A stretch of 64,000 nucleotides of DNA from Squalus acanthias (taxonomy: Eukaryota): contig CM059453.1 of the NCBI GenBank assembly GCA_030390025.1, forward strand, positions 6,200,001 to 6,264,000, read 5' to 3'. The notes under the pieces are model-generated. The model was not told the origin of the DNA. It worked only from the letters and a program-made list of their open reading frames with translations, and ran no database searches. A program made the translations under genes and the position numbers. Within the stretch, counting starts at the first letter, position 1. Every line of letters begins with the position of its first letter. This document shows, one piece after another, positions 16,238 to 59,570 of this stretch.

Positions 16238-16405
16238 TCACTTATGCTTCATTGCTGCATATTCGCAGGTCTCCTCATTTTGAATATATTGATCATGTTT
16301 GCGGAAGTTTGAGAAATTGACGGTCGCGTACACAATCTCGTCATTCTGAGCTGGTTTAGTCGATTGAGCGGCGCCATGACCAGCCTCTGTACACTGATGG
16401 TCCCT
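16238..16405 (-). CDS. Gene A exon 8: terminal cytoplasmic exon with ITIM IVYATV and distal motif TCEYAAM
   Basis: cctttcgttacag|RDHQCTEAGHGAAQSTKPAQNDEIVYATVNFSNFRKHDQYIQNEETCEYAAMKHK*; homologous to 2305-2472 and 39503-39644. Confidence 0.88.
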   Translation of the reverse strand, partial: RDHQCTEAGHGAAQSTKPAQNDEIVYATVNFSNFRKHDQYIQNEETCEYAAMKHK

Positions 16406-22400: not shown

Positions 22401-25400
22401 TTGAAAATATAAACCGAACAGGTTTCAGAAGAATGAAAGTTAAAATGGATAATGCCGACGCAACCTTTCAGTTGCTGATTGACCACTGATCGAAAGAGGT
22501 CCTTACACTAATTAGAGATAGATTCAGTATGGACCTGCTTAATGGAGCTGGTATTTGCTGAAACTAACACCGTTCAGTTAGTGACTGACTATGATGGACC
22601 AACTCCCTTATAGTATTAAATTACAGACAATTTAAACATGTACCCTTAGAGTGGAGCTGGTATTTGCTGACAGAATCACCGTGCTCGTTTGCTGCAACAC
22701 ATGAGAGCAGGTTTCCGGTTCCGGTTGGGTGAGTGAATCTCAGGGAGCTCTCCATGAGGTGGCTTTTCACCGCCCAGGAGATGATATCCACATCTGACCT
22801 GTCCCCAGTGAGCCTTCTCCCGTTGAGGCACCACGTGATGTTTCCCGGCGGATTGGCTCTGATCCGGCAGCTACAATTCGTCCAATTCTCTGAGCTGGTG
22901 CATTTCGGGCCTATTAAAATTTTGGGTTTATCTAGAAAAAATGGAAACTTCAAAAGGAAATGATCATGTAAACAGTTGCAGTTTCGAAATACAATTAAGT
23001 AATGACTTGAACTAACGTAATAGTTCTGGTTGTTATATTTTAAGAAGTAGCTTTCATATGTTGCACCAGTTGAAGGCTTATTATATTTTCACGTATAAAA
23101 GGTGAGCTCGTTAGGAACAATTTCATATTAAGTCCAATGAGTGTTCAGTCCATCAATACCTCTCCTGACAGATGTTGTGAGGGACCCTCAGACGGAGCTA
23201 GCTCAGAGTTTTGATTATGTATAATATACCCACAAACGTGTCTCACCCGTCACTGTTTTAAAAGGTCAAGTCATTTAAATTTCTTCACTTTGTTTACTAT
23301 TTTAAACATCTTCATTTGTGGTGGACTTACGTGATTCTTCAATAAACGTCCGGCTAACAGGGCGACACGTCAAAGAAACAAGTCTCGGAATGTTACACAA
23401 TTAACTCCATATTATAACAAGTAATAGGAGTTGGCTTAACACCATGTTATCACACTTTTTTTAGAGAGAATTTGTGCTCATCAAACTGCTGCAAATCAGT
23501 TCTAAGTATTGGAAAATTCTTTATTTCATACTACGAGTATTATTTGTGAACAATTAGCTATAGAATAAAGGTCACAGTAAATGTGCTCCTGTCGCAACTG
23601 CATAAATGTATGAACTGCTGCATTTATGCCACAATGTGCCATCTTCCACTCCTGTCATACTGAGCGAGATGCCAGGTTAGTTTCCATTATTGGAGCCAGA
23701 GAGGTAGTTTGCCGCTATTTCCGCGGGAAGGGGTGAAACTATCCCGAACTCATGCACATGTGCACCTTAAAGCAAGCAGGCAAGAGAAAATTGGAATTTA
23801 ATCCAGAGTTCGTGAAATGAAAGGCTACTATCTAATTGGTAACTTAATACATACTTACATTGTACTGAAATCTGTGTGGAGCAGTTGGCGGTGCATAAGG
23901 CATTTTCAGCTATGCACCAATATTCATTATCGTCCTCAGAACGAATGTTGTGGAATATCTGCTTTAGTTCACCAGTGGAAGACCTGCTGGTCTCTTCACC
24001 ATTTTTCAACCAACTTAAACTGACCTGGGGTTTTTCCCAGGCCGTGCAGTATAATAATAATGAACTTCCTTCCACAGCTACTATAGAGGAGTTAATTGTT
24101 TGGATTTCCAGTCCATCTGAAACAGGCGTTAACGCAAAACGGGATTGCTTAATAAGCATAATTAAGCTCCGAATTAATTCATTATATTGGGTATGGGGAT
24201 CAGACGGGTAATTGGAGTTGAGTTCGATATTCCGCCATGATTGCCGGAGTGGCGGAGCAGGCTCGAAGGGCCGTATGGCCTACTCCTGTTCCTAATTCTT
24301 AAGTTCGTATTAAGCCCAACGAGAGCTGAGATCTGGTGTCATAGCTTCAGATCCTAACTCGGCATGGCTTTTGTTGCTTCCATGTCTGATTGATTAACTC
24401 AGAACTTGACTGGAAGTTCATAGAATAAAGATTAACTATCACGTTAAAAAATCTGTTGGAGGCACCATCATTGATTCATGGATATGAATGTCTCAAATGT
24501 AATACGACTGATGCGAATTAGAGGAGAGCCATCCCGAACCATTGATTATCGAATTGAGCTCCCCTGGTACAGAGGCTGAGCGTTTCATGATGCATTCTTT
24601 GATGCAGTTCTAATCACTAATAAATTACTTGTGGTAAAAGTGCAAATGTTTTTCCCCTTGGCATAAGTCTGTTTACTTTAGACCGGACACTTAGTGCAAT
24701 TTGTCACAGAGTGCAACTCGGAACAGAGTGTTAAGGTGCGAGTTTGGTTAGTGAGGGAGTTCGGGGAGGGAGGTGTTCCTTTCTTTTTCTATCTTTGTCA
24801 GCGTTCAGGAGAGCAGGAGCTAAAAAGCTGCACAAGAGCGGACAGAAAACCAGCGGGAGTTCGGCTCTGTGACACCCCCCAACCGGATCTGCAGAAAAAT
24901 AAAAGTTCAGTTCAAACAGAGTGCTGCGAATTGGGAATTGGTTCCTACTTTACACAAAGGAAAGAGTCCGAGAGCAGGAGCAGTCAAACAACAACAACTG
25001 CGAAAACGCTAAAGTGACTTCATAAACAGGGAAGGTGCTGATTGGTATCGAGGACCTGGTGAGTATTTGTACAGTCCAGTCGTTCAGGTAAAGTAAGATC
25101 TCTAGTTTAGAGTAAGTAGTATTTAAAGGGAAGTAAGGTCCCTAGTGTATTTAATATTCGTTCAAATAAAGTAAGTAAATGGCGTAAATTAAGGGTAGGG
25201 CGTGGCAGGGCAGGTCGGCAGCGTGAAGTGCTCCTGCTCTGCTCTGTGGGAAGTCAGGGACACTTTAGGTGTCCAAGGCGAACACATGTGCAGGAAGTGT
25301 CTCCAGCTGCAGCTACTGGAAATCCGCTTTTCGGAACTGGAGCTGCGGCTGGAGTCACTGCGGAGCACCCGCGAAACTGAGATCTTCCTGGATAGCACGT

Positions 25401-28400
25401 TTAACGAGGTGGTCACACCGAAGGTAAAGAGTGTCCAGGCAGACAGGAAATGGGTGACCGCCAGACAGAGTAAAAGAACTAGGAACATAGTGCAGGATTC
25501 CACTGGGTCCATCTACCTCTCCAACAAATTTTCCATTTTGGATACTGATGGGGGAGATGGTTGCTCAGGGGAATGCAGCAAGAGCCAAGTCCGTGGTACT
25601 ACGAGTGGCTCAGCTGCACAGGAGTGGGGGAAAAAGAGTGGGAGAGCAATAGTTTTAGGGCATTCTATCGTAAGGGGAACAGAGAGACGTTTCTGTGGCC
25701 GCAGACGTGACTCCAGGTGCCTATGTTGCCTCCATAGTGCCAGGGTTAAGCATGTCACTGAAAGGCTGAAGGACTTCTGAAGGGTGAGGACGAAAAGTCA
25801 GAGGTACTGGTTAACATTCTTACCAACGGCATGGGTAGAAAGATGGATGAGGTCCTGCAACAAGAATTTGGGAAGCTAGGTATCAGATTAAAAAGCAGGA
25901 CCTCAAAAGTTGTACTCTTGTGATTACTCCCGGTGCCACGTGCTAGTGAGTATAGGAATATGTGGGTAGAGCAGATGAAAGCGTTGCAAAAGAGTTGATG
26001 CAGGAGGGAGGGCTTTAGATTCCTGGATCACTGTGTCTGCTTCTGGGGAAGGTGCGACCTGTACAAGTAGGATGGTTTGCACTTGAACAGGAACTGTTCC
26101 AACATCCTTGCGGGGAGGTTTGCTAGTACTGTTGCGGGTGGGGGCGGGGGGGAGTGTGCAAGGTTAAACTTATTCGGCAGTGGGATGGGATACAGAGCGG
26201 ATCTATAGTAGGGGGTGACGCACAGCCAAATATACAGGAAAAAACAAGTTAGCCTGCAGAGCAAATATATGACGGCACATGGGAGTATGGCAAGGCTGGA
26301 TGGCATTTGTTTTAATGCAATTAGACTTGCGAGTAAGGCAGATGAATTGAAGGTGTTGATGAACACTTGGGAGTATGATATTGTTGTTATCACAGATACA
26401 TAGTTAAGGGAGGCGCAGGATTAGCCGCTCAATATTCCAGGGTGTAGAATCTTCAGGCGAGAAAGAGGAGGTTGTAAAAGAGGAGGGGTTGTCGAAATAT
26501 TAATCAAGGAGACAATTACTGCTGTAAGGTGGGATGATATCTCAGCAGGTTCCTCTAATGAGGCTATATTGGTAGAATTTAAAAACAAAAAGGGGGCAAG
26601 CACTTTGCTGAGAGTGTACTAAAGGGCCCCATACAGTGAGGTGGAGAAGAGGAACAGATATGTAGGGAAATCTCAGAAAAGTGTAGAAATAATAGGATAA
26701 TAACAGTAGGGGATTTCAACTTCCCCAGTATTAACTGGGATAGTCCGAGTGTGAAAGGCTTAAAGGGTGCAGATTTCTTAAAGTGAATCCAGGAGAGCTT
26801 TTTGAGCCAGCATGTAGAAAGTCCGACAAGAGAGTGGGCGGTACTGAACCTAATTCAAGGGAATGTAGCCGGGCAAGTGGTAGAAGTGTCAGTAGGCGAG
26901 CTTCTTGGTGACAGTGACGATAATTCGGTGAGATTTAAGGTAGTTAAGGAAAAGAATAAAGATGGACCTGAAATAAAGGTTCTAATTGGGGGAAGGCCGA
27001 TTTTAATATGATAAGGCAGGATGTGGCCAAAGTGGACTGGGATCAGCTACTTGTAGGAAAAAACACATCAGAGCAGTGGGAGTCTTTCAGAAAGGAAATA
27101 CAAAGTACACAACGCCAGCATGTTCCCGTAAAGGTGAAGGGTGAGACCAACAAGCCGAGGGAACCCTGGATGACAAAGGATATACAAGAATGGATTAGGT
27201 AAAAGAGGGATGCTTTTGGCAGACACAAAGGACAAATAACAGTGGAAGCCCTTGAGGAGCATATAATGAGCAGGGGGTACTTCAAACAATAAATTAGGAG
27301 AGCGAAGAGGGGGCATGAAAATACACTGGCGGGCAAAATAAAGGAAAATCCCAAGATGTTTTATAAGTATATTATGGGCAAGAGGATAACGAGGGAAAGA
27401 GTAGGGCACATTAGGTACCAAAGTGGAAATCTGAGCGTAGAGCCGGAATATGTAGGTGAGGTTTTAAATAAATATTTTGCAGCTGTGTTTACGATGGAGA
27501 AGGCTGATGTAGGTATAGAAATCAGGCAGGGGGATATACTTGAACAAATTAGTATTGAGAGGGAGGAGGTACTAGCGGTTTTAGCGGGCTTAAAAGTGGA
27601 TAACTCCGCAGGCCCTGACGGGATGTATCCCAGGGTACTGTGTGAGGCAAGGGAGGAGATTGCAGGGGCACTGACACAAATTTTCAGAACCTCTCTGGCC
27701 ACAGGGGAGGTGCCAGAGGACTGAAGAACAGCTAACCTAGTACCATTATTCAAGAAGGCTAGTAGGGATGAACCAGGGAATTACAGGCCAGTGAGCCTAA
27801 CATCGGTGGTAGGGAAATTATTGGAAAAAATTCTGAGGGACAGAATTAGACCCCACCTGAAGAGGCAAGGATTAATCAAGGATAATCAGCATGGCTTTTG
27901 TCAGGGGTTATCGTGTCTAACCAATTTGATTCAATTTTTCGAGGGGTTGACTAGGTGTGTGGATGAGGGAAGTGCAGTTGCTGCAGTCCACATTGACTTC
28001 AGTAAGGATTTTGACAAAGTCCCTCATGGGAGACTGGTCAAGAAGATAATAGCCCATGGGATCCTGGGCAATTTGGCACATTGGATCCAAAATTGGCTTC
28101 GTGGCAGGAGGCAGATGGTGATGGTCGAAGGTTGTTTTTGTGACTGGACGCCTGTGTCCAGTGGTGTTACGCAGGGATTGGTGCTGGGTCCTTTGCTGTT
28201 TGCAGTGTACATGAATGATTTTCATATGAATGTAGGAGGTATGATCAGTAAGTTCGAAGATGACACGAAAATTGGTGGACTGGTAAATAGCGAGGAGGGA
28301 AGACTTAGGCTACAGGACGGTATAGAAGGGTTGATTAGATGAGCACAACAGTGGCAAAAGGAATGTATCCCTGAAAAGTGTGGGGTGATGCATTTAGAAA

Positions 28401-31400
28401 CAAAGAAACATAGAAGATAGGAGCAGGAGTACGCCATTCAGCCCCTCGAGCCTGCTCCGCCATTCAGCGAGATCATTGCTGATCATCCAAATTCAGTACC
28501 CTTTCCCTGCATTCTCTCCATATCCCTTGATCCCTTTAGCTTTAAGAAATATATCTAACTCCTTCTTGAATATATTTAATGAATTGGCCTCTACTGCCTT
28601 CTGTTGTAGAGAATTCCATAGGTTCACCACTCTCTGAGTGAAGAAATTCCTCTTCATCTCAGTCCTAAATGGCTTACCCCTAATCCTTCGACTATGACCC
28701 CTGGTTCTTGAATCCCCGGCCATCGTAATATCCTTCCTGCATCTAGTCTGTCTAGTCCTGTTAGAATTTTTGAAGTTTCAATGTGATCCCCTCTCATTCT
28801 TCTAAACTCCAGCGAGTATCAGCCAAATCGACCCAATCTCTCCTCATACAACATTCCTGCCATCCCAGGTATCAGCCTGGTGAATCTTTGGTGCACTTCC
28901 TCCATGGCAAGAATAACCTTCCTCAGAGAAGGCGACCAAATCTGCACACAATACTTAAGATGTGTTCTCACAAAGGTCCTCTACAACTGCAGCAAGATAT
29001 CCATTTTGGGAGGACTAATAAGTCAGGGGAATACACAATGAGTGCTAAGACCGTAGGAAGGACAGCGGATCAGAGGGACGTTGTTGTGCATGTATATATA
29101 TATCCCTGAAGGCAGCAAGAACGGTAGATAAGGTGTTTAAAAAGCCAGATGGAATACTTGCCTTCATTAGCCGAGGCATAGAATATAACAGCAGGGAGGT
29201 TTTGATGGAGCTATACAAATGCTATTTATGCCACAGCTGGAATACTGTGTGCAGTTCTATTCGCCACACTAGAGGATGGATGTGATTGCATTGGAGAGGG
29301 TGCAGAGGAGATTCATCAGGATGTTACCTGGGCTGGAGCGCTTCAGCTTTGAAGAGAGACTGGACAGGCTGGGGTTGTTTTCCTTAAAGCAGAGAAGGCT
29401 GAGTGGTGACCTGATTGAGGTGTACAAAATTATGAGGGGCATAGATAGGGTCGATAGAAAGGAACTTTTCCACTTAGTAGAGGGGTCAATAACCAGGGGG
29501 CATAGTCTCAATGTAAGGGGCAGGAGGTTTAGAGCGGATTTGAGGAAAAACTGTTTCATCCAAAGGGTGGTTGGAATCTGGAACTCACTGCCTGAAAGGA
29601 TGGTAGAATCAGGAACCCTCACAACATTCAAGAAGCTTTTAGATGAGCACTTGAAACGCCATCGCATACAAGGCTACGGACCAAGTGCTGGAAAATGGGA
29701 TTAGAATAGAGAGGGCTTGATGGCCGGCGTGGACATGATAGACCGGAGGGCCTCTTTATGTGCTTTATAACTGTATGACTTACATTTAATCTCCAAGGTA
29801 AAATTTTGTGCTGAAGGAGTTGTTATACCATCAATTAGAATTGTGCATCCCAGAATGTTCCCGTCATTAGCAGATGATGGTGTGAAGATGATCACGGATG
29901 AAACTGTCCGAGAACCTGAATTTTCATTGCTAATTTCTGCTCCATCTTGAGTATCCATGGCGGGAGGAAGGGACACATTGTAATTAATCCACTTCAGTTT
30001 CAGTTTGCCATCCGGGCAGTTGTGGGTGACAGAACAGGACAATCGTGCAGTTTGTCCAGCGGTCAATTCCCCATAACCTGCTATCTCTGGCTTTTCTATA
30101 ATAACGGGAGAAAACCATCTTGTTAGGTGCATTTCAATGTTAAAACGGGCGACTGATGGCTCACAACTAAATCTGAGAAAGAATTAACAAGACAATCATT
30201 TTTTTATTTTTTTTCTCTGCTACGTGTTGCAAGTTTGTTCTCCCTTCTCACTAACTCCTCGCAGATGTAATGTAGTTTTATGCCTCATCGGGTAACATGT
30301 GGCCCCACTTAATTAAACAATAGTCGTTATATCTCCTAAATTATTTTTATCATGGATATTCTCCAGTGAACCAATTTTACAGGCTGGACTTAGAATCAAC
30401 GTTAACTCCTCAAATGTCACGAATATTTCATCCTCTCTTATGATTCCTTCTGCACCAGTACCTCCCAATGTAATGGAGACTAATGCAGACCCAGAGAGAT
30501 CTCGATTCTGTTGCCAAGAAACTTCAATGGAGAACGACAATGTTCAAGAAAGGGACAGAACAGACAAAGGGCGGATAACATCGCCTTGTGCGGGAGCAAC
30601 AGGGCAGTTTCCTCTCTTGTAAATCTCATGAAGGCTTCAGCAGAACCAGCATTTTTGACGTGGGATTAGAATGAACAAATAAATTATAACTTGAACTGAT
30701 TTTCACGTTACTGTAATATCTACTTTTTATTTAAGATCTAATTAAAAGCGTGGTAAATGAGCGCTGGATAGCGAAAGGCACGAACAAAGATTGCATTAAT
30801 TCGGCGCCGTTTAACTCCTGGCGACATCAAAAGACGCTTCACCAAAAAGTAACTTGAAATGTAATCAGCCAGCCATTGTCGACGGTAAACACAGGAGATT
30901 ATTGGAGAATATATTAAGATATTTGGAATTAAGGATAATGTAGAAATTGCAAAATAAACTGTTTGCAAGGGACGATGCAGTCAGTGGCCGTTACGTGCAT
31001 TTCCTCAGAATGGTTGGATCTGAGTACGATGTCCCACGGGGCTGTGCTGTGGGATTGCTTTTACTCACTGTGTGCATCAATAATTTGGAGAAGGCGCCAA
31101 AGAGACTGAAGTCCAAATTTCCCGTTACGAGTTAATTGGATTCCAACAAAATGAAAATTGGACAGTGTGTACAATGAGAGGCGCATCCAATATCGCCAGT
31201 TTGACAACCATGACAAAGTTGCAAGTACAACTCCCAGGAAATAACTAGAGAACTAAAGGGAGTTACAAACGGATACTAGAGATATTGTAGAATGGGGACA
31301 TAAGAGGCAGATATAATTCAAGGTCAGAAAATATGAGATGGTAGATGTTAATTTGAACCGTAGGAATCTGGGAGATGTGGAAGAGCAGAGGAATTTGGGG

Positions 31401-33843
31401 TCAGTTTCATAAGACAGTAAAAGCAGCACCTCCAGTGGAAAAATGTATGAAAATGTTTCTGGAGCTCTGAGTTTAATGGCAGGAGATCTGTAATATAAAT
31501 TCGAGATTTTTGGCGATTCTAAAGAGAACAGTAGTTATTTCGCATTTGGAGTAAGAATACGGGTATTGGCCGCCAGTCTATAGGAAGGCTACAGGGCTGA
31601 TTCGCGTAGTTTCTGTCTGGTATGATGAAGTACAATTAGCAAGAAAGTATTTAAAAATTGAGGCAGATTTTATTAGGCTTCAACAGATTTTGGGATGATT
31701 TGACAGAAGTGCTTAAACTTTATAAGCAGCGGGACAGAGAAGATAGAAGCAGACTGAGATATAATTTGAAATGGCCGCCCTGGTTAAAACTGTCATTCCA
31801 GACAAGTCACCCATTCTAGCAACCAACCTAGTTCCATTACCTTTCATGTCATTGTAGCTAATGAGCTGTTGGTTTATGTATTGTAAGGTACGACCAACAA
31901 TGTCAGCTTCAGGTTCAGTCAACACTTAGTAAATCTATCCTCATGTGTACATTTCAGAATCGGCTCGACAGGTGTTGGAAGGGAATTGCAATAAAGGGAT
32001 ATGGGAACTGAGCAGGCACATGCGATTCGGAGTGTTGATCATGTGAAGGACAAACAGCAACACGGGCTGGCTGGACCGAACGGCCTGATTTACTGCTGTA
32101 ATTTCTATATACCTCTGTGCTTAAGATATGAATGCCTGCGTCTCTTATCAGTACCCCTGCCCGCTATATTTCCACTAATCTTAATATTCGGCCAGAGAAA
32201 TCAAAAAAAATTGCACACTTTACAAATAGGATGTGAAGGCCCTGAAGAGGGTGCAGAGGAGATTTACCAGAATGGTTCCGGCAGATGGGGGATCTTAGCT
32301 AATAGGATAGGTTGGAGAATCTGGATTTGTTTTCATTGGAGCAAAGGAGGTTGAGGGGTGATTTGATAGAAGTGTACAATATAATGACGGGTTTGGATAG
32401 GCTAGACGGGGAAAGGCTGTTCCCACTAGTTGATGGTACAAGGACCAGGAGACAGAGATTAAGGTTTTGGGCAAGAGATACAGGGGGAATGTGAGTAAAA
32501 ACTTTTTAACGCAGCGAGTGGTGAGGACCTGGAACTCGCTGCCGACGGAAGTGGTGGAAGCGGAGACACTCAATGTTTTCAAGGGGAGACTGGATAGGAA
32601 CTTGAGGGAAATAAACTTGCAGGGCTACGGGGATAGAGCGGGGAAACGGGACTGACTGGATTGCTCTAAAAAGACCCGGCACGCACTCGATGTGCCGAAT
32701 AACCTCCCTCTGTGCCGTTATAAATCTATGAATCTATGTTGATTCATACTAAAACAATGGAATAAAAATGTACAAGAAGAATAAATGGCAAACTCACCTA
32801 AAACAGAAAGAAAGACTTCAGAACGGGCAATGCGATGTGTAATAGAATTTCTGCCCGAGGTGATGGCTGTGATGAACTGATATGCACCCTGATCACGTTT
32901 TCGGACATCCTTTATCAGGAGGGAGCATTGTCTTTTTTCAAGATTGCCCTTGAACTCAGCTCTGCCAATATAATTATAATGCTGCCTGAATGGACCATTC
33001 GAATCATAGATAATGGATTCATTGGGTGTTCCAGGACCAGGTTCCCTCTTAATCCACCTCCCGTTCAGGTTGGCGATGTAGCCCATGTTCTCAAATTTAC
33101 ACGGGATCTCTGCACAAGAACCCAACACCGCCGACACATCTTTTGGCATCACCACAGAACATTGAACACTACAAAAGGCTGAGAAAATAAAAGATTAGAC
33201 GGCCTTTAAGTATCCATTCAAAAAGCATTGGAATTGCTTAAGCATCCATGAAATTGCTTGTTGATTGACTAAAAGCCTCCCAGCACATTAGCAATTTAAA
33301 TATCAGTTAAAGACTATTCAAAATCAATTAAAATGCTGACTAAATAACAATCGCAAAAATTATTGACATGTTCATTGGAATATATATTTGATAGTAGTTT
33401 TATCAACAAATAATATGTATATTTAAGACTCATCTGAAAACCGAACACATATCCACTAAGAAGCAAGTGAATGCCCTATAAAATCTTCATTAAATATAAA
33501 TTAAAATTAATATTAATTAGAATGAACATTACACTTCTATTGACTCTCCCTTGAATTACTCAATTAATATGAATTAGCATGCTATTAAATGTGCATTACA
33601 ATTCTCATTAAAGATAACTTGAAAAGCCCTATAATTAAATATTGTTTGAATAGGCAATCACATGCAATAAAACACTTATGGAATACCAACTCGCCGTTGC
33701 GACAATCAATTAAAAAAATTATTTTAGGTACTGTCCTGTTCTTTTCCAACCAGATATTAATCAGCTGTTTTAGAAATTAGTAAAAACGTAAGAAATGTAC
33801 CTTCGTTCAATACCATGAGAGAAACCAACAGGCAAGTCCTCAT
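16238..33843 (-). CDS. Gene A: Siglec-like (V-set + 3 C2-type Ig) inhibitory-type receptor, 543 aa; complement join 33801-33843, 32798-33178, 29784-30095, 23859-24116, 22644-22931, 21718-21811, 19247-19334, 16238-16405
   Basis: All eight exons have GT-AG boundaries, intron phases are 1,1,1,1,1,2,0 and the frame is open for 1632 nt. Siglec Cys pattern (GSCAEIPC..QCSLLI; D2 HNCP), uncharged TM and ITIMs. Confidence 0.88.
16975..17550 (+). mobile_element. Non-LTR retrotransposon 3' fragment (RT C-terminus, family distinct from the CR1 copies)
   Basis: AIYKVQVKSVMEYSPLAWMSAAPTTLKKLDTIQDKAARLIG; tail cagcggttcaagaaggcggctcaccacca..aataaatgctggccttgccagcgacgccc. Confidence 0.8.
17800..18460 (+). 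mobile_element. Old degenerate CR1 3' fragment (gene A intron 7)
   Basis: Remnants such as FFLAQRVVIWNALP and a CR1-type tail. Confidence 0.7.
19247..19334 (-). CDS. Gene A exon 7: cytoplasmic exon with ITIM VIYSTV
   Basis: ttattgttcag|(R)KKQGEAARVTEAHDNLVIYSTVHKAVNTD|gtaagt; phase 2 in and phase 0 out fit the flanking exons. Confidence 0.87.
19441..20610 (-). mobile_element. CR1 LINE 3' fragment specific to gene A intron 6
   Basis: Minus-strand SGVPQGSLLGP, SKFVDTKL, RRNFFTQRVV; ends in (ttcttatg)n tail. Confidence 0.92.
21718..21811 (-). CDS. Gene A exon 6: transmembrane (no charged residue)
   Basis: cattttag|GIFSTTIVLIIGGGATGLVILIAVVLMLKIQ(R)|gtatgt. Confidence 0.92.
22644..22931 (-). 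CDS. Gene A exon 5: membrane-proximal Ig domain
   Basis: tttttctag|YKPKILIGPKCTSSENWTNCSCRIRANPPGNITWCL..SCVAANEHG..LHSK|gtacat. Confidence 0.92.
23859..24116 (-). CDS. Gene A exon 4: Ig domain 3
   Basis: gtttcag|YGLEIQTINSSIVAVEGSSLLLYCTAW..W..DDNEYWCIAEN..ISVQ|gtaagt. Confidence 0.92.
24700..29780 (+). mobile_element. Near full-length decayed CR1 LINE (5'UTR, ORF1 zinc-finger/SGNH esterase, ORF2 APE endonuclease + RT) in gene A intron 3, antisense to the gene
   Basis: ORF1 CSCS..CRKC..LE, IVLGHSIVRG and DGLHLN. ORF2 YDIVVITDT, GDFNFP, SGVTQGLVLGP, SKFEDDTK and CFIQRVVGIWNSLP. Many stops. Confidence 0.95.
28396..29001 (-). mobile_element. CR1 3' fragment nested inside the intron-3 LINE
   Basis: Flanked by CATTT duplication (28391-28395, 29002-29006); minus-strand KRNFFTQRVVNLWNS. 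Confidence 0.9.
29784..30095 (-). CDS. Gene A exon 3: C2-set Ig domain 2
   Basis: ttattatag|EKPEIAGYGELTAGQTARLSCSVTHNCPDGKLKLKW..GNILGC..LEIK|gtaagt. Confidence 0.93.
30950..31720 (+). mobile_element. Very old LINE RT remnant (paralog at ~51640-52380)
   Basis: gtcccacggggctgtgctgtgggattgcttttactc..atcaataatttgg is a decayed [16 protein letters not shown]. Confidence 0.5.
32220..32735 (+). mobile_element. CR1 3' fragment in gene A intron 2
   Basis: LFSLEQRRLRGDLIEVY, NFLTQRVVRTWNSLP; tail tctatgaatctatg. Confidence 0.9.
32798..33178 (-). CDS. Gene A exon 2: Siglec-type V-set domain
   Basis: ttttctcag|AFCSVQCSVVMPKDVSAVLGSCAEIPCKF..W..YDS..GRAEFKGNLEKRQCSLLIKDVRKRDQGAYQF..LSVL|gtgagt. Confidence 0.94.
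33801..33843 (-). CDS. Gene A exon 1: signal peptide
   Basis: gcaATG MRTCLLVSLMVLNE G|gtacat, phase 1. Confidence 0.85.
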
Positions 33844-37165: not shown

Positions 37166-38948
37166 ATCTGACTCTGAATGTACAGAAGAAAATAACAAAA
37201 ATATAGAGAATCGCAAGTGGGCGAAATGTAAGTGAAAGGAATTTAATTGGGGAAAGCACAAGAGTGCAGAAAACGAGGGAACGAGAGATGGAGAGAGAAG
37301 CGGAAGAGGAGCTGGAGGGAGCAAAATGACAACGAGAAGTCCGCAGAGAGGTAAGAGAGACCACACTCTCTGACTTGCCATGAGATGTGTGACTGGGGAG
37401 ATCGAATAATAAAATGTTTGAAACATGTACCTGATGCAATTCCATCGTAAGTTCCTGTGACCTCATTTCTAAAGGATCCTGTCTGTGTGAACTAATGAAA
37501 CTGTAATTACACCCTCCCGGAAGTTCAAGCAATGCAGCTCCAACAATCCCAGCAAGGTATAATTACAGTGAATCACCTTTGCATAAGGTACTTCCGGTAT
37601 ATCGGTGGAGATGTGCATTTACCATTGACATATAGACATACCAAACATAACCAGCGCAATTTCAAGCGTATTCGGTCGCAGTTTCTAGATTACGCCCAAA
37701 AGAGTAAACTATGCGCTTGAACTTGCGCTTGTTAGTTTAGGCTTCAGATTTCCGCTAAAATTCGTTTGCAGTGCACAAACTTAAGATCGTGCATGAACCA
37801 ATGCGATCGTGCATCGTAGCAGAACGGAATTGCATCGTTTTTACCATTAAAATGTATTCCTTCTAAGAATGTATCCTGGTGCAGTATTATTCAGACAGCT
37901 TTAAATGGATTAATCAGCAAATACACATATTTCTTAAGGGTGACCAGTCCTCCACCTGTAAACTGATTTAAAGTAACAGAAAATGACGAAAAGTATGATA
38001 CTGAAACATTTAATAGTGTAATTGTTGTACAGCAGACTGTGGCTTAGAAATTAACTTTGTTTTGATATGAGGAAACTATTAAAATATGCCTAATCCTGCC
38101 TTTGCTCCCAAGAAAATGAGCGCAATTGTATGAGCATTTCAGAATCAGCGCAATCTCGCTTTTCCGACCTGCGTGCAAGGCCAGTTTTGTGGGCGGAACC
38201 TGATTGGATAAAATTAAATTTTGAAACTGCGTAAAGATGAAGGAAAACATTCAGCGTAAGTGGTCGTGGGCGTAGCTCACTTATGTGTAAAATTCCACAC
38301 TCTTTAGCTCTGATTCGGCCAATTTGCCTGAATTGTGCTGACATAACTAGTGGAAACAAGCAGAAACTCGAGTGTTGTGCTGGGTGAGCGGAAAACTGAC
38401 TGAAATGCCCTGGGAATATCTGTCCATTTTCACAATCGCGGCACAAATCAAATACGTCCAGATGAATGACTATTGACAATTGTCTGGAACTCTCGCCAGA
38501 AGTCGTCTACGCCCATATTCATGGTTCTCTTGTAATTCGCAACTGATTTTCAGGCGCAGTAGCAAATAAAGTGTATTTTCTGCTGTTCAATTGTAATTTT
38601 TTTGGCACCTGCTACACGGTTTTGTGGGTTCATACTGTGGGCCAATACATTTCAGCAGATTAACAGACAAAGACGATGTTAGAAATGCTTTGTAAAATAG
38701 TTATTTTCGCAGAATAGAGAAAAATGTTGAACATTTACATTCACAAAAAATTCAAACTCCCTACTGTATTTCAAGTCACTCGAGATTGTGAATTTAAATA
38801 AAAAACAATCCACTTATTTTCTGAAAGATCTCCATTCTCATAGTCCTCATTGTATTGTAATGCTGTCTGTTTTACTTCATAACATCAGGTGTGTTCAGGC
38901 ATTTTCAGTTTCAAGAACATCCTCGCTAACAGTTAACTTTCACTTATG

Positions 38949-39502
38949 TACTGGAGTACTGCTTGCAGTTTTGGTCTCCTTATTTCAGGAGGGATATACT
39001 TGCATTGGAGGCAGTTCAGAGATGGTTCACTAGGTTGATTCCTGGGGTGAAGTGGTTGTCTTATGAGGAAAGGTTGAGCAGGTTGGGCCTATACTGAATG
39101 GAGTTTAGAAGAACTTATTGAATCATATCAGATTCTGAGGGGGCTTGACAGATGGGATGCATAGACGATGTTTCCCCTCGTGGGGGAATCTATAACTAGG
39201 GGGCATAGTTTCAGGATAAGGGGGCGCCCATTTAAGACTGAGATGAGAAGGAATTTATTCTCTCAGAGGGCCATGAATCTTTGGAATTCACTACCCCAGA
39301 GAGCTGTGGAGGCGGAGTCATTGAATATATTCAGGGAGGAGATAGACAGATATTTTAAATACTGGGGAGTGAAGGGTTATGTTGAGAGAGCGGGAAAGTA
39401 GAGTTGAGGCCAAGATCAGATCAGCCATTATCTTATTGAATGGCGCAGCAGGCTCGAGGGGCCGAATGGCCTTCTCCTGCACCTATTTCTTCTTTTCTTA
39501 TG
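38949..39502 (+). mobile_element. CR1 3' fragment inserted at the ancestral stop codon of gene B's terminal exon
   Basis: LEYCLQFWSP, RRNLFSQRAMNLWNSLP; CTTATG duplicated at 38943-38948 and 39497-39502. Confidence 0.92.
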
Positions 39503-39596
39503 TTTAATTGGTGCCTAATCGCAGGTCTTCTTATTTGGGCTATATGCTTCATGATTGCGGAAGTGTGAGACATTGACAGTCACGTACACAATTTCT

Positions 39597-39644
39597 TCAT
39601 TCTGAGCTGGTTGAGTCGATTGCGGGGCTCACGTGATCGTCTCT
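39597..39644 (-). CDS. Gene B exon 8: frameshifted terminal exon (RDDHVSPAIDSTSSE*)
   Basis: cttccgttacag acceptor is homologous to A. It has 22 nt versus 39 nt in A before CAATCGACT, so the IVYVTV remnant is out of frame. Confidence 0.72.
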   Translation of the reverse strand, partial: RDDHVSPAIDSTSSE

Positions 39645-42600
39645 CTGTAACGGAAGACATTCGTCTTAGATATAGAGTTATTGCAAATTTAGAGCTGAAC
39701 ACGATGGGAGTGCGCTGTCTGCACCAGAGCAAAGCTAACTATTTAATCTCTGGTAACTTTTCCAATGGAGCTCATTCATGAGATATGCGTTTTTAGGTCT
39801 TGATGGAAGAAATAAATAACATCCAAATTGCGGCTCAGCACCATATTTTCAAGGGCAATTAGGGATAGGCAATAATTGCTGTCATTGCCAGCGACGCCCA
39901 CATCCCAGGAACGTTTTAAAAAAACAATCCACAGCGTCCGTCGATATACTTCACTCTCAGTGGCTAGTCCTCCCTTAAAAACACTAGTGACCAAATTTCT
40001 GAAAGTCCCATTTATCTATTGGGATTTTGCCTGTTCTGGTTCACTCGCTCGTTGAAAACACAACAAAAATCCTACAACTGTCACTCCAGATTGGCTTCAC
40101 TTACCTCAACGTTTAGATCCCCAGTGTACACCAGCGCACCACTAGCTGTTTTCGGCACACATGCAGTCTCACTGCTCTTCTTCCTAAAAAATAACAAATA
40201 ATAGATAATCGATAACTTAAATGTTTACTGAATGTATACTGTGAAGGACGTCCGTAGGTCAGGAGAGACAGATGTCTTTTAGGTTTTCCGATTAGCACAG
40301 ACCACGTCCGCTCTCCAATTATTTTCAATTTACATCTGCCTGCATTTTAAAAGGGAACTGTTGACTTTATCAATGAAGCTCGTTAATGGCGCGGTGTTGC
40401 TTGCTCATGTTGAAAGCTGATTGTGCTGTTTGGACATAGGAGGATCATTCAATATGTTAACACCTTATTAAGTAGCAGATGGAAGAGTTTCAGCGTGCAA
40501 ACACATTATAATCTATGATTACTAGAGCTATAACCCTTTCATTTAGTGCATTTCAAATGCTAACCACTTTTTGCTTAACAAAAGTTTGTCCAGATGTCGC
40601 ATTTGGTTGATTTGCCAATCGCCTGAAACCTGTGCATCTGGTTAACGACATTTGAGGCATTGTAATCAATTTATCGTTATTTACTTTATCTAAATCCTTC
40701 ATGATTTTGAACATATCTATCAAATCTCCTGTTAGCCTTCGCTGCTCTAAGGACAACAGCCCCTGCTTCTCCAGCCTATCCACATCACTGTAATCCCTCA
40801 TCCCTGGAACAATTCCAGTAAATCTCTTCTGCTCCCTCTCCAAAACCTTCACCTCATTCCTATAGCGTGGTGCCCAGAATTGTACACAATACTCCAGCTG
40901 GGGCCGAACCAATGTTTTCTATAGGTTCAGCACAACTTGCTGCTTTTGTGCACTGTGCAAATATGTATAAAGTCCAGGCTTCCATAATCTTTATTGACTG
41001 CTTTGTTCAACTGTCCTGCCAATTACAAATTGTCGTGCATAAGCAGCCCAACGTCTCTCTGTTCCCGCACCAACTTTAAAATTGTACCATTTAGCATGTC
41101 TTGTCTCTCCTCATTCTCCCTACCCAAATCTAACACCTCACAATTTTCTGTGTTGACTTTCATCTGCCATGTGTACACCCATTCCATCAGCATGTCTCTG
41201 TCCAAATGAAGTCTATTACAATCTTCCTCACTCTTCACTACACTTCCACGTTCGGTGCCATCTGCAAAGTTCGAAATTGTGCCCTGTACCCGCAAGGCCA
41301 AGTCATTAATATATATCAAAATTTGAGTGTGAAATGGGGAATACATCAATGTTCCCTTGAACCACGTTGAGATCCTTCCTCAGTATCTCTGAAAGAAGCT
41401 TTTATATATTAGTTAGCATGGAATTGGCATCTTTAATACTGACATGGTACAAGAAGGGTTATAATCGAGCACCACTCACAAGAGTGTTCTAACTCATCTT
41501 GTTATGTTTGTTGCCGAATCATTGGCTGTTGTGGAGGGCGTCCACCTGAGGAGCCCGTCACTGATTTCAATTGTAAACATCGTTTGTGATTTGTTGAAGA
41601 GTAATTTTGGTTTGCAGCAGATTGTAAACCGAATAGATATAATTGGAATTCACTTGGAGCCATTCATCTCCTTGAAGCTAATTATCAGCCTATCCATTAT
41701 AAGCGGGGATTCTGTCGAGAGCATTCCGTGAGAGCTCGTCAGACCAAATAGATTAAGTCACTGGTAAGAATAAGATAACCATCCCAACATAAATAATCGT
41801 TTAGATCATACTTTAGCACATCAGTCACACCCAATTTTGAAACATAATATTCTACTCCTGCAGCCAAACAAACTGAACCACTACTGTAAACATGTGTGTC
41901 ACGTTAATTGTACTATTTGTTTGTTGTTTTACAGTTTGCTGGACTTGCTTGATTGTTAGAATTTAAAATCATTCAGGTTTAGTGTTATGCTGGGAACCTG
42001 ACATGGCAAGGAGGCTTGTGTGAGGGTGCCCCGTAAAAACAGCAGCAGAAACTAACTGAACGGGTTTCTCTGTCCATTCTTTGAGAATACTGCGAATTTT
42101 ATCTAGATTACACGTTAGTTGAAAACAATCCCTGGCACATAGCACCCCAGGGATCAGAAGTCCAAAAATGTCAGTTTAAACATAAGCAACAAACCGCAAT
42201 AATATAACAAGAAGAATGCACAGATACCCTCATTCAAGTAGACACTAATATTACTCCATAGCTGATGCTGGGAGATGCGGGCGACTGGTCAGGGGACGAT
42301 TGACCCACCTCGTTTCCGCTTCGATTCAGGCAGGTGCTCACTCTGCTCACAGGAGATTAATTTCAACGAGCTTTTGATACAAGGAATTTCTGATGCAGGA
42401 TCCCCTTTAAAACTCCATTTTATGTAATTAGGAATCACTCATACCTTTGTATCTTCAGCAGGAGCACGACTGCAATTAGTAACACAATCCCAGTGGCTCC
42501 TCCTCTTATGATGAGAAGAATTGTCCTGGAGAATATTCCTAAAAAATTGCAAAGAAACATTGCTGTACCTTAGGGAATTGGATTTAAACAACAATCTTCG

Positions 42601-45600
42601 AAGCACATTTATGAGTGTGAGGTATCAAGTTCCCTTTATGTTCGGATCGGAAAGCTAATGGAAAGTGAAACACTCCACTTGTCTCAAACTTGCGTAAAAG
42701 CATTTTATTCATGTGTTGTGGCCTGGCGTAAATTTGAAATAAATAATTTAAGATTCGCTGGTGTAAAATTGAAAAATTAAGTTTACGCGACAACACACCC
42801 ACGGAAAAACAGTGGGCATAAACCAATCTGAATACCGGCCCGCCAAGGTCACCAGTTACAGCGGTAAGATTTATAATCTTTTGAGAAAATTCAGTTTCAC
42901 ATAGGTAATTAAATATCGGCTTTACATACTTAAATGAGTCTGAACAAGATAGAAATGAGCATGTACATACAAAAGGGTAGATTGCAGTTTGCTATCCTGT
43001 ATTAAGAGTAATTTGGATTTTCTAAAGGGTTTATCTTAATTCAGAGGAATTTGTATTCCAAGATCACTGGCTATTTCTGGTGTTCAGATAATTTCATCAT
43101 ATGTAAAAATATAAAACTAGCCAGTTTCAGAAGACTGAAAGTTAAAATGGATAATGCCGACCACACCTTTCAGTTGGTGATTGACCACTGATGGAAAGAG
43201 GTTCTTACACTAATTCGAGAGAGATTCAGTATGGACCTGCTGAATTTAGGTCGTATTTGCTGACACTAACACCGTTCAGTTAGTGACTGACCAGAGATGG
43301 ACCAACTCCCTAATAGTATTAAATTACAGATAAATTAAACACATACCCTTCGAGTGGAGCTGGTATTTACTGACAGAATCACCGTGCTCGTTTGCTGCAA
43401 CACAAGAGATCAGGTTTCCGGTTCCGGTTGGGTGAGTCAATCTCAGGGAGCTCTCCATGATGAGACTATTCACTGCCCAGGAGATGATTTCCGCATCTGA
43501 CCTGTCCCCAGTGAGAATTCTCCCATTGAGGCCCCACGTGATGTTTCCCTTGGGATTGGCTCTGATCCGGCAGTTACAATTCGTCCAATTCTCAGAGCTG
43601 ATGCATGTCGGGCCTGCTAAAATTGTGTGTTTATCTAAAAAAAATGGAAAATGCAAGAGGAAATGATCATGAAAACAGTTGTAGATTCGAAATACAATTA
43701 AGTAATGAGTTGAACTAACCATCATGGTTCTGGCTGTTATATTTTAAGATGAAGCAGCCGATGTTGCACCAGTTCACAGCTTATTATATTTTCACTTATA
43801 ACTGGTGAGCTCGTTAGGAACAATTCCATGTTAAATAAATGAGTGTTCAGTCCATCAATACATCTCGTGACAGATGTTGTGAGGGACCCTCAGACCGAGC
43901 TAGCTCAGAGATTTGATTATATGTAATATACCCAGAAAGGTGTCTCACCTGTCACTGATTTAAAAGGTCAATTTATTTCAATGTCTTCACTTTGTGTACT
44001 GTTTTAAACATCTTCATTTGTGGTGGACTGACGTGATTTTTCAATAAACGTCCGGGTCACAAGGCGACATTTCAAAGAACCAAGTCGCGGGAATATTACA
44101 CTATTAACTCAACGTTAATACAAGTAACAGGAGTTGTCTTAACATCATTTTATCACACTTTTTTTGGAATGAATTTCTACTCATCAAATTGCTGCAAGTC
44201 AGTTCTAATGATTGGAAAATTGTTTATTTCAGACGACGAGTATAATTTATGAACAATTAGTTGTAGAGTAAAGGTCACAGTAAATGTGCTTGTGTCGCAA
44301 CCTCATAAATGCAAGACCTGCTGCTTTTATGAGACATTGTGCCATATTCCACTCCTGTCATACTGAGCGAGATGCCAGGTTAGTTTCCATTATTGGAGCC
44401 ATCGAGGTAGTTTGCCGCTATTTCCGCGGGAAGGGGTGAAACTATCCCAAACTCATGCACATGGTCGCCTTCCAGCAAGCAGGCAAGAGAACATTGGAAT
44501 TTAATCCGGAGTTCGTGAAATGAAAGGCTACTCTCTAATTGATAAATTAATACATACTTACATTGTACAGAAATTTGTGTGGCGCGGTTTGTGGTGCCTA
44601 GGGCATTTTCAGCTATGCACCAATATTCACCGTCGTCCTCAGAACGAATGTTGTGGAATATCTGCTTTAGTTCACCAGTGGAAGACCTGCTGGTCTCTTC
44701 TCCATTTTTCACCCATCTTAAACTGACCAGGGGTTTCCCCCAGGCCGTGCAGTATAATAATAATGAACTGCCGTTCACAGCTACTATAGAGGAGTTGACG
44801 GTCGGGATTTCCAGTCCATCTGAAACAGGCGTTAACGCAAAATGTGATTGCTGAATAAGCATAATTAAGCTCCTAATTAATTCATTATACTGTGTAGAGG
44901 GATCGAGTGGGAAATTGGAGTTGATTTCGATGATCAGCCATGCTTGCCGGAGTGGCGGAGCAAGGTCGAAGGTCCGTATGGCCTAATCCTGTTCCTCATT
45001 CTTAAGTTCTTATTATGCCCAACCAGAGCTGTTATCTGGTGTCCGAGCTTCAGATCCTAACTCAGCATGGATTTTGTTGCCTCCATTTATGACTGACTAA
45101 ACTCAGAACCTGACTGGAAGTTCATAGAATAAAGATTGACAATCACTTTAAAATATCTGTTGGAGGCACCATCATTGCTTGATGGATATGAATGTTTCTA
45201 ATATAATCTGACTGATGAGAATTAGATGAGAGCAATTCCGAACCATTGAGTATCGAAGTGAGCTCTCCTGGTACAGAGGCTGAGTTTTTAACGATGCATC
45301 CTTTGATGAAGTTCTAATCCATAATAAATTACTTGTGGTAAACGTGCAAATTTTGTGCCCGTTGGCCGACAGGATAAGTCTGTTTACTTAAGACCGGACA
45401 CTTCATGCAATTTGTCACAGAGTGCAACTCGGAACAGAGTGTTAAGCTGCGAGTTTGTTTAGTGAGGGATTTCGGGGAGGGAGGTGTTCCTTTATTTTTC
45501 TATCTTTGTCAGCTTCCAGGAGAGCAGGAGCTAAAAAGCTGCACAAGAGCGGACAGAGAACCAGCGGGAGTTCGGCTGTGTGACACCCCCCAACCGCATC

Positions 45601-48600: not shown

Positions 48601-51600
48601 AGGGGGTGACTAGGTGTGTGGATGAGGGTAGTGCAGTTGCTGTAGTCTACATAGACTTCAGTAAGGATTTTGACAAAGTCCCGCATGGGAGACTTGTCAA
48701 GAAGATATGAGCCCATGGGATCCTGGGCAATTTGGCACATTGGATCCAAAATTGGCTTAGTGGCAGGAGGCAGATGGTGATGGTCGAAGGTTGTTTTTGT
48801 GACTGGTCGCCTGTGTCCAGTGGTGTACCGCAGGGATCGGTGCTGGGTCCTTTGCTGTTTGTAGTGTACATTAATGATTTTCATATGAATGTAGGAGGTA
48901 TGATCAGTAAGTTCGCAGATGACACGAAAATTGGTGGAGTGCTAAATAGCGAGGAGGGAAGCCTCAGGCTACAGGACGATATAGAAGGGTTGGTTAGATG
49001 AGCACAACAGTGGCAAAAGGAATTTAACCCTGAAAAGTGTGGGGTGATGCATTTAGAAACATAGAAACATAGAAGATAGGAGCAGGAGAAGGCCATTCAG
49101 CCCCTCGAGCCTGCTACGCCATTCAGCGAGATCATTGCTGATCATCCAAATTCAGTACCCTGTCCCTGCCTTCTCTCCATATCCCTTGATCCCTTTAGCT
49201 TTAAGAAATATATCTAACTCCTTCTTGAATATATTAATGAAATGGCATCTACTGCCTTCTGTTGTAGAGAATTCCATAGGTTCACCACACTCTGGGTGAA
49301 GAAATTCCTCTTCATCTCACTCCTAAATGGCTTACCCCTAATCCTGAGACTATGACCGCTGGTTCTGGACTCCAGAGCCATCGTAACATCCTTCCTGCAT
49401 CTAGTCTGTCTAGTCCTGTTAGGATTTTATAAGTTTCAATGAGATCCCCTCTCATTCTTTGAAACTCCAGCGAGTATAAGCCCAATCGACCCAATCTATC
49501 CTCAAACAACATTCCTGCCATCCCAGGTATCAGCCTGGTGAATATTTGGTGCACTCCCTCCATGGCAAGAATAACCTTCCACTGATAAGGCGACCAAAAC
49601 TGCACACAATACTTAAGATGTGGTCTCACCAAGGTCCTGTACAACTGCAGCAAGACATCCATTTTAGGAGGACTAATAAGGCAGGGGAATATACAGTGAG
49701 TGGTAAGACCCTAGGAAGGACAGAGGATCAGAGGGACGTTGGTGTGCATGCATATATATATATCCCTGAAGGCAGCAAGAAAGGTAGATAAGGTGTTTAA
49801 AAAGCCAGATGGAATACTTGCCTTCATTAGCCGAGGCATAGAATATAACAGCAGGGAGGTTGTGATGGAGCTATACAAAACGCTATTTATGCCACAACTG
49901 GAATACTGTGTGAAGTTCTACTCGCCACACTAGAGGAAGGATGTGATTGCATTGGAGAGGGTGCAGAGGAGATTCATCAGGATGTTACCTGGGCTGGAGC
50001 GCTTCAGCTATGAAGAGAGACTGGACAGGCTGGGGTTGTTTTCCTTAGAGCATAGAAGGCTGAGTGGTGACCTGATTGAGGTGCACAAAATTATGAGGGA
50101 CATAGATAGGGTCGATAGAAAGGAACTTTTCCCCTTAGTAGAGGGGTCAATAACCAGGGGGCATAGTCTCAAGGTAAGGGGCAGGAGCTTTAGAGCGGAT
50201 TTGAGGAAAAACTGTTTCTCCCAAAGGATGGTTGGAATCTGGAACTCGCTGCCTGAAAGGATGGTAGAAGCAGGAACCATCACAACATTCAAGAAGCATT
50301 TAGATGAGCACTTGAAACGCCATCGCATACAAGGCTATGGACCAAGTGCTGGAAAATTGGATTAGAATAGACAGGGCTTGATGGCCGGCGTGGACACGAT
50401 AGACCGGAGGGCCTCTTTATGTGCTGTATAACTCTATGACTTACATTTAATCTCCAAGGTAAAATTTTGTGCTGATGGAATTGTGATACCATCAATTAGA
50501 ATTGTGCATCCTAGAATTTTCCCGTCATTAGCAGATGATGGTGTGAAGATGATCACGGATGAAACTGTCCGAGAACCTGAACTTTCATTGCTAATTTCTG
50601 CTCCATCTTGAGTATCCATTGCGGGAGGAAGGGACACATTGTAATTAATCCACTTCAGTTTCAGGTTGCCATCCGGGCAGTTGTGGGTGACAGAACAGGT
50701 CAATCGTGCAGTTTGTCCAGCGGTCAATTCCCCATAACCTGATATATCTGGCTTTTCTATAATAACGGGAGAAAACCAGCTTGTTAGGTGCATTTCAATG
50801 TTAAAACGGGCGATTGATGGCTTACAACTAAATCTGAGAAAGAAGTAACAAGAAAATCATTTTTAATTTTTTTTCTCTGCTAGGTGTTGCAAGTGTGTTC
50901 TCCATTCTCAATTACTCCTCGCAGATGTAATGTAGTTTTATGCCTCATCGGGTAACATGTAGCCCCACTTAATTAAACAATAGTCGTTATATCTCCTAAA
51001 TTATTTGTATCATGTATATTCTCCAGTGAACCAATTTTACAGGCTGGGCTTAGAATCAACGTTCACTCTTCAAATGTCACGAATATTTCATCCTCTCTTA
51101 TGATTCCTTCTGCACCAGTACCTGCCAATGTGATGGTGACTAATGCTGACCCAGAGAGATCTCGATTCTGTTGCCAAGAAACTTCAATGGAGAACGACAA
51201 TGCTCAAGAAAGGGACAGACCAGACAAAGGGCAGATAACACCGCCTTGTCTGGGAGCAACAAGGCAGGTCCCTCGCTTGTAAATCTCATGAAGGCTTCAG
51301 CAGAACCAGCATTTGTTGAAGTGGTATTAGAATGAACAAATAAATTATAACTTGACATGATTTTCACGTTACTGAAATATCTACTTTTTATTTAAGATCT
51401 AATTAAAAGCGTGGTAAATGAGCGCTGGATAGGGAAACGCACGAACAAAGACTGCATTAATTCGGCGCCGTTTAACTCCTGGCGACATCAAAAGACGCTT
51501 CACCAAAAAGTAACTTGAAATGTAATCAGCCAGCCATTGTCGACGGTAAACACAGGAGATTATTGGAGTATATATTAAGATATTTGGAATTAAGGATAAT

Positions 51601-59149: not shown

Positions 59150-59570
59150 ATCGGGAACGGCAGCATAGTGGTTATGTTACTGAACTAGTAATGCAAAAGT
59201 CTGGTTAATGATCTAGAAGGCGTGAGTACAAATCGCACCACGGCAGCCGTGGAATTTTAATAGTTAAAAAAATAATCGAGAATGTAAAAGCTAGTATCAG
59301 ATAATGGTGACCCTGAAACGATCAGGTTGTTATAAAAACCCATCTGGTTCACTGATATATTTTAGGAAAGCAAACCTGCCGTCCTTAGTTGGTCTGGCCA
59401 ATATGTGACTCCTGACTCACAGCAATGTGGTTCACTCTTTACTGATCTCTGAAATTACTTAGCAAGCCACTCAGTTGCAAGAACAGCGGTTCAAGAAGTC
59501 GGCTCACCACCACCTTCTCAAGGACAATTAGGGATGGTCAATAAATGCTGGCCTTGCCGATTACATCCCA
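59150..59570 (+). mobile_element. tRNA-derived SINE
   Basis: A-box-like ggcagcatagtgg, degenerate B-box gagtacaaatcgc, and a 3' tail that matches the 17445-17540 LINE tail. Confidence 0.75.

Follow-up and report, generated by a model that had tools for sequence, protein, structure and literature searches.

The window analysed here, a stretch of 64,000 nt from the 3.7-Gb genome of Squalus acanthias (contig C30, CM059453.1, positions 6200001-6264000), contains two complete minus-strand genes, A and B, each with eight exons and the same layout of a leader, a V-set domain, three more immunoglobulin (Ig) domains, a transmembrane (TM) helix and a two-exon tail. Their sequences suggest that B is the activating-type partner of the inhibitory A in a paired-receptor system, formed in the manner of activating KIR and Ly49, and we put the probability of this reading at roughly 0.6. 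B combines an ectodomain near-identical to that of an inhibitory paralogue with a positively charged TM residue and a short tail devoid of any immunoreceptor tyrosine-based inhibitory motif (ITIM), and the literature names TM charge plus short tail as characteristic of activating paired receptors (PMC13358205, PMC2213150). An inhibitory ancestor acquired a TM Arg, and a single frameshift deprived it of the two tyrosine motifs in exon 8; Arg gain, a 9-nt loss in exon 7, the frameshift and insertion of a CR1 element all lie on the stem of one clade, no order being implied. The signalling half has since reached no fewer than 11 genes that differ in their ectodomains, and B took its current ectodomain (exons 1-3, probably also 4) from the inhibitory A subfamily. 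Expressed and binding a ligand like that of A, B would pair its Arg439 with an acidic residue of an adaptor bearing immunoreceptor tyrosine-based activation motifs (FcR-gamma or CD3-zeta, both in the genome) and activate where A inhibits.

The tail of B belongs to a larger group. DNA searches with its exon 6, exon 7 or exon 8 each yielded the same 11 top-ranked loci, all on C30, and the ten other genes are referred to as b1-b10 (L001-L010; the full loci of b1 and b2 are L041 and L042). A net 9-nt loss, a 17-nt frameshift loss and a CR1 at the same site occur in all 11, which excludes an assembly error as the source of the frameshift, an outcome that a preliminary description of this DNA had named as its possible refutation. 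In a tree of exons 6-8 from 38 genes, the 11 form one clade with a support of 100/100; the sister group consists of five genes on other contigs, two of which (L011 and L012) have an ancestral full-length exon 7 and no CR1.

Comparison within this clade simplifies the history of the tail, for which four separate lesions had been proposed. As described, exon 7 of B reads LVYTGD against VIYSTV in A and is 79 instead of 88 nt long. The deletion exists, but it is not the cause of the motif loss, since it maps 3' of the Val at Y+3 and spares it; this Val was lost in B by a point change, GTT to GAT, common to B and b1-b3, and the idea that the 9-nt loss destroys the ITIM was consequently rejected. 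Five clade genes (b5-b9) keep the Val as MVYTEV or MVYTGV, and the motif was lost in at least three further ways, by a stop before the Tyr (b1-b3), an 11-nt loss (b4) and a Y+3 change combined with a broken donor (b10). Nor is VIYSTV the ancestral motif, as the sister genes L011 and L012 show LVYTEV in their full-length exon 7. In exon 8, the net 17-nt loss indeed puts IVYVTV out of frame and leads to an early TGA, and this frameshift by itself abolishes both exon-8 tyrosine motifs. What remains is a tail of about 42 residues, whose sole Tyr has Asp at +3 and falls outside (I/L/V/S)xYxx(L/V), i.e., no ITIM is left.

The other two proposed lesions are present as well, with little consequence. 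The distal Tyr codon of B is TAG; the corresponding motif in A, CEYAAM, matches neither the ITIM definition nor that of the immunoreceptor tyrosine-based switch motif as given in PMC2832619. The CR1 lies just ahead of the old stop, where it removes no motif, and is flanked by a duplication of 7 nt (ACATAAG on the minus strand) and not by the CTTATG reported before. Both TAG and CR1 are downstream of the frameshift stop and can therefore not affect signalling. The reported AATAAA within the CR1 was also found. Given a background of 0.8 AATAAA per kb on the minus strand of the window, however, one occurrence in about 550 nt is close to chance, and B's three closest relatives have no AATAAA at that CR1 site. 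A role of the CR1 as provider of the clade's poly(A) signal is unsupported, as only 3/11 copies contain the hexamer. Likewise, the presence of TAG in 4/11 genes and of AATAAA in 3/11 marks both as late passengers. Three of the four lesions were thus inherited from one clade ancestor and two are without effect once the frameshift exists; one shared frameshift and one later point change account for the motif loss, and a count of four overstates it.

An isoform could in principle retain inhibitory or dual signalling: an AG near 39602, shortly 5' of the former ITIM and in suitable phase, is a candidate cryptic acceptor that would restore the frame of IVYVTV and unite Arg with ITIM, and the Tyr codon of this motif is still present in B. 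With the normal acceptor intact 43 nt upstream, the same Tyr lost in 5/11 clade genes and exon 8 evolving at intron rate, we consider such an isoform very improbable.

The key feature was overlooked in the preliminary description. TM residue 439, Gly in A, is Arg in B; it lies inside the best 19-residue hydrophobic window (residues 434-452), 16 residues before the cytoplasmic Lys. Arg439 occurs in 11/11 tail-clade genes and Gly in the sisters L011 and L012, i.e., Arg is the derived state, and Gly also stands at or beside this position in named homologues that belong to the same subfamily in other sharks (P0001, P0008, P0010, P0013, P0014). Thr432 to Arg, considered as a second charge specific to B, was rejected, since Arg is the usual residue at 432 with either type of tail. 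Among 26 A-type TM exons that were read, three have Arg439 (one AGA, two CGA), one has Arg438 and two show a 6-nt loss and charged residues; Arg438 is also found in the sister-group copies L013, L015 and L017. In other sharks, three protein models of another subfamily (P0005, P0029, P0033) contain a TM Arg after 10-11 residues of the exon, surrounded by a different sequence; the tail of P0033 is short and has no ITIM, and for P0005 and P0029 the predicted tails may be wrong.

As a side observation, a TM Arg at 438 or 439 thus occurs on other tails in L027, L030, L032, L038 and L013/L015/L017, with two or more different codons encoding it. Tail damage accompanies it in most of these genes; L032 keeps all three tyrosine motifs and is possibly a dual-signal intermediate. 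In L040 and L084, an in-frame 6-nt loss in the TM exon leaves Glu and Arg within the helix, and the tail of L084 is fully inhibitory.

In receptors that partner with DAP12, the TM charge lies more centrally in the helix. Two adaptor TM exons in the genome match PF11628, each with an acidic TM residue, and their translations read as CD3-zeta-like (L081, contig C5) and FcR-gamma-like (L082, contig C1222). An Arg near the helix start goes along with FcR-gamma in receptors with an NxxR motif (PMC2413239). Prediction of a complex between the TM exon of B and two copies of the FcR-gamma-like TM exon reached a score of 0.09 against a mark of 0.34.

Patterns of substitution further argue for retained function. 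Changes private to B affect 25/1305 sites in exons 1-6 compared to 269/7499 in introns (p=0.0014), which points to purifying selection on these exons; counted by codon, 8 are synonymous and 11 non-synonymous. Had exons 1-6 of B changed at the intron rate, they should have collected about 3.7 disabling lesions, and none was seen (P about 0.025). Between A and B, the ratio of non-synonymous to synonymous rates (dN/dS) is 0.57 (p=0.015). In the clade as a whole, where counts of distinct alleles are lower bounds, the TM exon has 13 derived alleles at 94 sites vs. 392 at 1509 flanking intron sites (p=0.007), and 7/7 changes in its hydrophobic core remain hydrophobic (p about 0.01), while exons 7 and 8 evolve at the intron rate (0.28 and 0.29 vs. 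0.26-0.31). An invariant and derived TM Arg, a tail at intron rate and slower TM and ectodomain exons together support a functional switch. The earlier conclusion that B underwent such a switch and no general decay is thereby better backed than had been recognised, even though two arguments offered for it, the four lesions and the intact ectodomain, were faulty.

A constrained ectodomain, a hydrophobic helix and a neutral tail could also be explained without any adaptor if B were a functional but non-signalling decoy or competitor for the ligand of A, or for a pathogen exploiting A, with the Arg being tolerated or serving trafficking only; the lack of an NxxR motif would fit. This appears quite unlikely to us, as it leaves unexplained both the intrahelical charge in 11/11 copies, three invariant codon positions being by themselves too few for significance, and the Arg at similar depth in separate shark lineages.

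The intact ectodomain calls for a more differentiated view. As stated before, exons 1-6 of B have open frames and its splice sites are preserved, each of the 14 being AG/GT, but this is partly due to recombination that brought in exons 1-3 of the A subfamily. Between the promoter and the end of intron 3, the identity of B to A-subfamily genes is mostly 88-97%, and that to b1/b2 in exons 1-3 is 73-91%; from intron 4 onward, the values are 92-98% for b1/b2 and 76-91% for A. Trees built exon by exon from 37 genes group B with A on exons 2 and 3 and with b1/b2 on exon 5; the exon-4 tree gives little resolution and the junction region is mosaic. A single clade for the 11 genes is rejected on exon 2 (p-AU, approximately unbiased test, 0.0001) and exon 3 (p-AU 1e-46). 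B is hence a chimera, in which an A-subfamily ectodomain was joined near exon 4 to the signalling half of the tail clade; exons 1-3 come from the inhibitory A subfamily and exon 4 probably does so, too. With this origin, exons 1-3 of A and B share 96-98% DNA identity, and the two receptors have V domains 91% identical on opposite tails. A similar situation is known from SIGLEC11/16 and SIGLEC5/14, whose 5' regions were subject to conversion. In intron 3, a multi-kilobase insertion of a long interspersed nuclear element (LINE; window 45500-50400 and 24500-29700) is found in A, in B and in b10 alike and serves as a marker of the A-subfamily ectodomain. The same stop at codon 81 of exon 4 was observed in two genes with the tail of B, b8 and b9 (L048, L049), and in the A-tail gene a40 (L067), showing that lesions, too, cross between tail types by recombination.

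The ectodomain itself is of Siglec type: the V domain matches the Pfam families V-set and Ig_CD22, the four Ig exons correspond to a Siglec-type V-set domain followed by C2-type domains, and the best solved-structure matches of the V domain of B are sialoadhesin and MAG (E 2.5e-10 to 8e-8). In Siglecs, an essential Arg of the F strand is needed for sialic acid binding (PMC6288428). In B, the Arg of sialoadhesin aligns with Ile, so that B is Siglec-like but no canonical lectin; its ligand would be similar to that of A and probably other than sialic acid. Among 37 V exons, four of them unreadable due to frameshifts, only those of b3, b5 and b7 have Arg at this position. These three (L043, L045, L047) all sit on frameshifted tails with TM Arg and share an exon-4 frameshift.

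The ten sisters of B tell a more ambiguous story. B is the only one of the 11 tail-clade genes with exons 1-6 all intact, and 10/10 sisters carry an ectodomain lesion. Exon 4 has a stop or frameshift in 8/11 tail-clade and 7/24 A-type genes; without exon 4, lesions remain in 3/11 vs. 4/24 (p=0.65). Skipping of this exon would restore an open frame in 7/8 of the tail-clade genes broken there, which are damaged in exon 4 alone and in which the exon-4 splice sites are still AG/GT, whereas b4, b6 and b10 are broken with or without it. By hand count, exon 4, with 19% of the coding length, received 11 of the 19 independent lesions (p=0.0002), two outgroup genes without exon 4, L079 and L080, being left out; a stricter count gives 9/17 (p=0.002). 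In four close pairs of exon-4-broken sisters, which are not independent as b5 is used twice, exon 4 differs by 3.8% and the other exons by 1.4%, compared to 2.4% in introns 3-4 and 2.1% in other introns. Annotated proteins from three other sharks (P0009, P0012, P0013) also have no exon-4 domain. The seven sisters may accordingly be three-domain receptors, or else pseudogenes, and three- and four-domain forms may coexist in the cluster.

Several observations weigh against an activating B. Lesions in exons 1-6 are more frequent in the tail clade (10/11) than in A-type genes (10/24; Fisher p=0.009, the genes not being independent). The clade TM exon has a dN/dS of 1.3 (3 synonymous, 10 non-synonymous), not below 1, although the ratio discriminates poorly here, as A-type exons 6-8 also give 0.87-1.09. 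Close exon-4-broken sisters show 11 synonymous and 43 non-synonymous changes in their other exons, i.e., no synonymous excess. The private rate of B may include conversion from copies outside our sample, which would inflate this rate and with it the 3.7 expected lesions. Gly to Arg at a GGA codon needs a single step and is also seen in a clear pseudogene (L030/L057) and in L032 with its intact ITIM tail. Finally, an NxxR motif was not found at the TM start of B, which reads LIIR with Leu at -3.

Much of this could mean that the tail clade is decaying or spent, that B is intact merely through recent recombination and is silent or becoming a pseudogene, and that its Arg is relic or neutral. The damaged sisters, in particular those broken even with exon 4 skipped, the chimeric nature of B, the occurrence of TM Arg in pseudogenes and the weakness of the dN/dS tests are all compatible with decay. 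We nevertheless regard it as unlikely. B is about 3% diverged from both donors at introns and its exons at half that rate, with no lesion; the clade TM exon is constrained and the adjacent tail exons are not; and lesions concentrate in the one skippable exon.

The switch favoured here follows a known path. In KIR, the activating forms have one signalling clade, ectodomains scattered by recombination and a short life (PMC2213150). As in activating KIR and Ly49 (PMC2213150; Abi-Rached and Parham, 2005), the inhibitory form is ancestral and few changes add the TM charge and remove the ITIMs once; the signalling half is one clade, ectodomains are scattered and activating copies are often disabled (PMC2213150). 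Different from those systems are the Siglec-like V-set, the occurrence in a cartilaginous fish, the CR1-marked clade and the concentration of losses in one skippable Ig exon. Similarities to Siglec-5/14 and Siglec-11/16 comprise adjacent genes with near-identical 5' regions including introns, opposite tails, a TM positive charge in the ITIM-less partner and common null forms (PMC5701461, PMC4042635, PMC13358205, PMC6288428). The paired Siglecs, however, bind sialic acid by the essential Arg and use DAP12, whereas B has Ile and an Arg near the outer helix end, and B is one of 11 such tails instead of a single pair; we call it Siglec-like with no claim of mammalian orthology.

An N-terminal TM Arg with a short ITIM-less tail is further shared with the NxxR receptors, e.g., LILRA2, PIR-A, NKp46, GPVI, OSCAR, Fc-alpha-R and Xenopus XFL (PMC2413239), from which B differs by the missing Asn at -3, an Arg derived from Gly inside the cluster and a Siglec-type ectodomain. 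All named homologues are shark or ray proteins. Those from sharks with the annotation Siglec-like, MAG-like or Schwann cell myelin protein-like (P0001, P0002, P0005-P0014 and others) have the same domain series and the same three-tyrosine tail, with identities of up to about 70% in Ig domain 4. Their annotation is automatic and carries no function; none of those retrieved has the tail of B, and the Arg-bearing P0005, P0029 and P0033 differ in TM sequence. Inhibitory-to-activating switches have also been described in CEACAMs (PMC2832619). The process is hence already known from KIR, Ly49, Siglecs, CEACAMs and Xenopus FcR-like genes, and B is most likely a new shark instance of it. Our search of the literature on shark Siglec-like or paired-receptor clusters found nothing on this cluster, with most subscription journals beyond its coverage.

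If B is activating, cartilaginous fish share the inhibitory-to-activating switch that mammals show in KIR, Ly49 and Siglecs, here within a cluster of dozens of genes. The cluster is also a candidate diversified leukocyte receptor system of sharks, and A and B offer a ready test pair: their ectodomains hardly differ, their tails are opposite and their genome encodes candidate adaptors. A broader and only tentative picture would be a large KIR-like paired system built from shark Siglec-like genes, mostly without the sialic-acid Arg, in which activating halves arose repeatedly via an outer-helix Arg (coupling to FcR-gamma or CD3-zeta, not DAP12), were swapped by recombination and were mostly cut to three Ig domains via loss of exon 4, with B as a recently re-armed four-domain counterpart of A. 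Contigs of three possibly-RNA runs, compared with 38500-45000, covered repeats and not exons 4-7 and are uninformative on expression; one unspliced contig of 95% identity touches intron 7/exon 8 of B.

Table 1. Positions of the features of genes A and B within the window (former motifs and codons refer to gene B).
Feature	Position	Strand	Description
Gene A	16238..33843	-	8 exons, 543 aa; Gly439; two ITIMs and distal Tyr motif; inhibitory-type paralogue adjoining B
Gene B	54503-39597	-	8 exons, 500 aa
B exon 1	54461..54503	-	Start codon and signal peptide; A-subfamily origin (identity profile)
B exon 2	53458..53838	-	Siglec-type V-set domain; PF07686, PF24518
B exon 3	50445..50756	-	Ig domain 2; sister to A exon 3, support 97/91
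B exon 4	44562..44819	-	Ig domain 3; length 258 nt, phase 1-1; can be skipped without loss of frame; no lesion in B
Chimera junction	44200..44600	-	Approximate; A-subfamily upstream, L041/L042-like (b1/b2) downstream; mosaic, not sharp
B exon 5	43347..43634	-	Ig domain 4; clusters with b1/b2, support 99/93
B exon 6	42445..42538	-	TM helix
Arg439 codon	42504..42506	-	AGA; GGA (Gly) in A and L011/L012
B exon 7	40105..40183	-	79 nt after net loss of 9 nt; Tyr encoded at 40128-40126, Asp of Y+3 at 40119-40117 (Val in the clade ancestor)
B exon 8, coding part	39597..39644	-	After 17-nt loss; ends with TGA 39599-39597
Former ITIM IVYVTV	39575..39592	-	Out of frame, 3' of the stop
TAG at former distal Tyr	39515..39517	-	In 4/11 clade genes; passenger
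CR1 flanking duplications	39503-39497 and 38949-38943		7 nt each; one copy overlaps the element's own tail repeat
CR1-type LINE fragment	38950..39496	+	5'-truncated 3' fragment, antisense to B; same site in 11/11 clade genes
AATAAA	39254..39259	-	Point change from the element's AAGAAA; in 3/11 CR1 copies; candidate signal only
Ancestral stop codon	38940..38942	-	TGA; displaced by CR1

Beyond these features, the V exon of B as genome query gave at least 139 matches, fragments included (150 scored of 244 candidates), most of them in the intervals 6.0-8.05 Mb and 0.18-0.33 Mb of contig C30. In gene A, exons 4 and 5 (24116-23859 and 22931-22644) encode three extra cysteines (residues 320, 324 and 366) without counterpart in B, and residue 309 is Asn in place of the usual Gly; it may be that the membrane-proximal domains of A are in change or dimerise. 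Ig exons from related genes, degraded and interrupted by in-frame stops, lie at 591-2000 (plus strand) and 58600-60400 (minus strand) of the window, and the one at 591-926 is similar to the other subfamily represented by P0029 and P0033.

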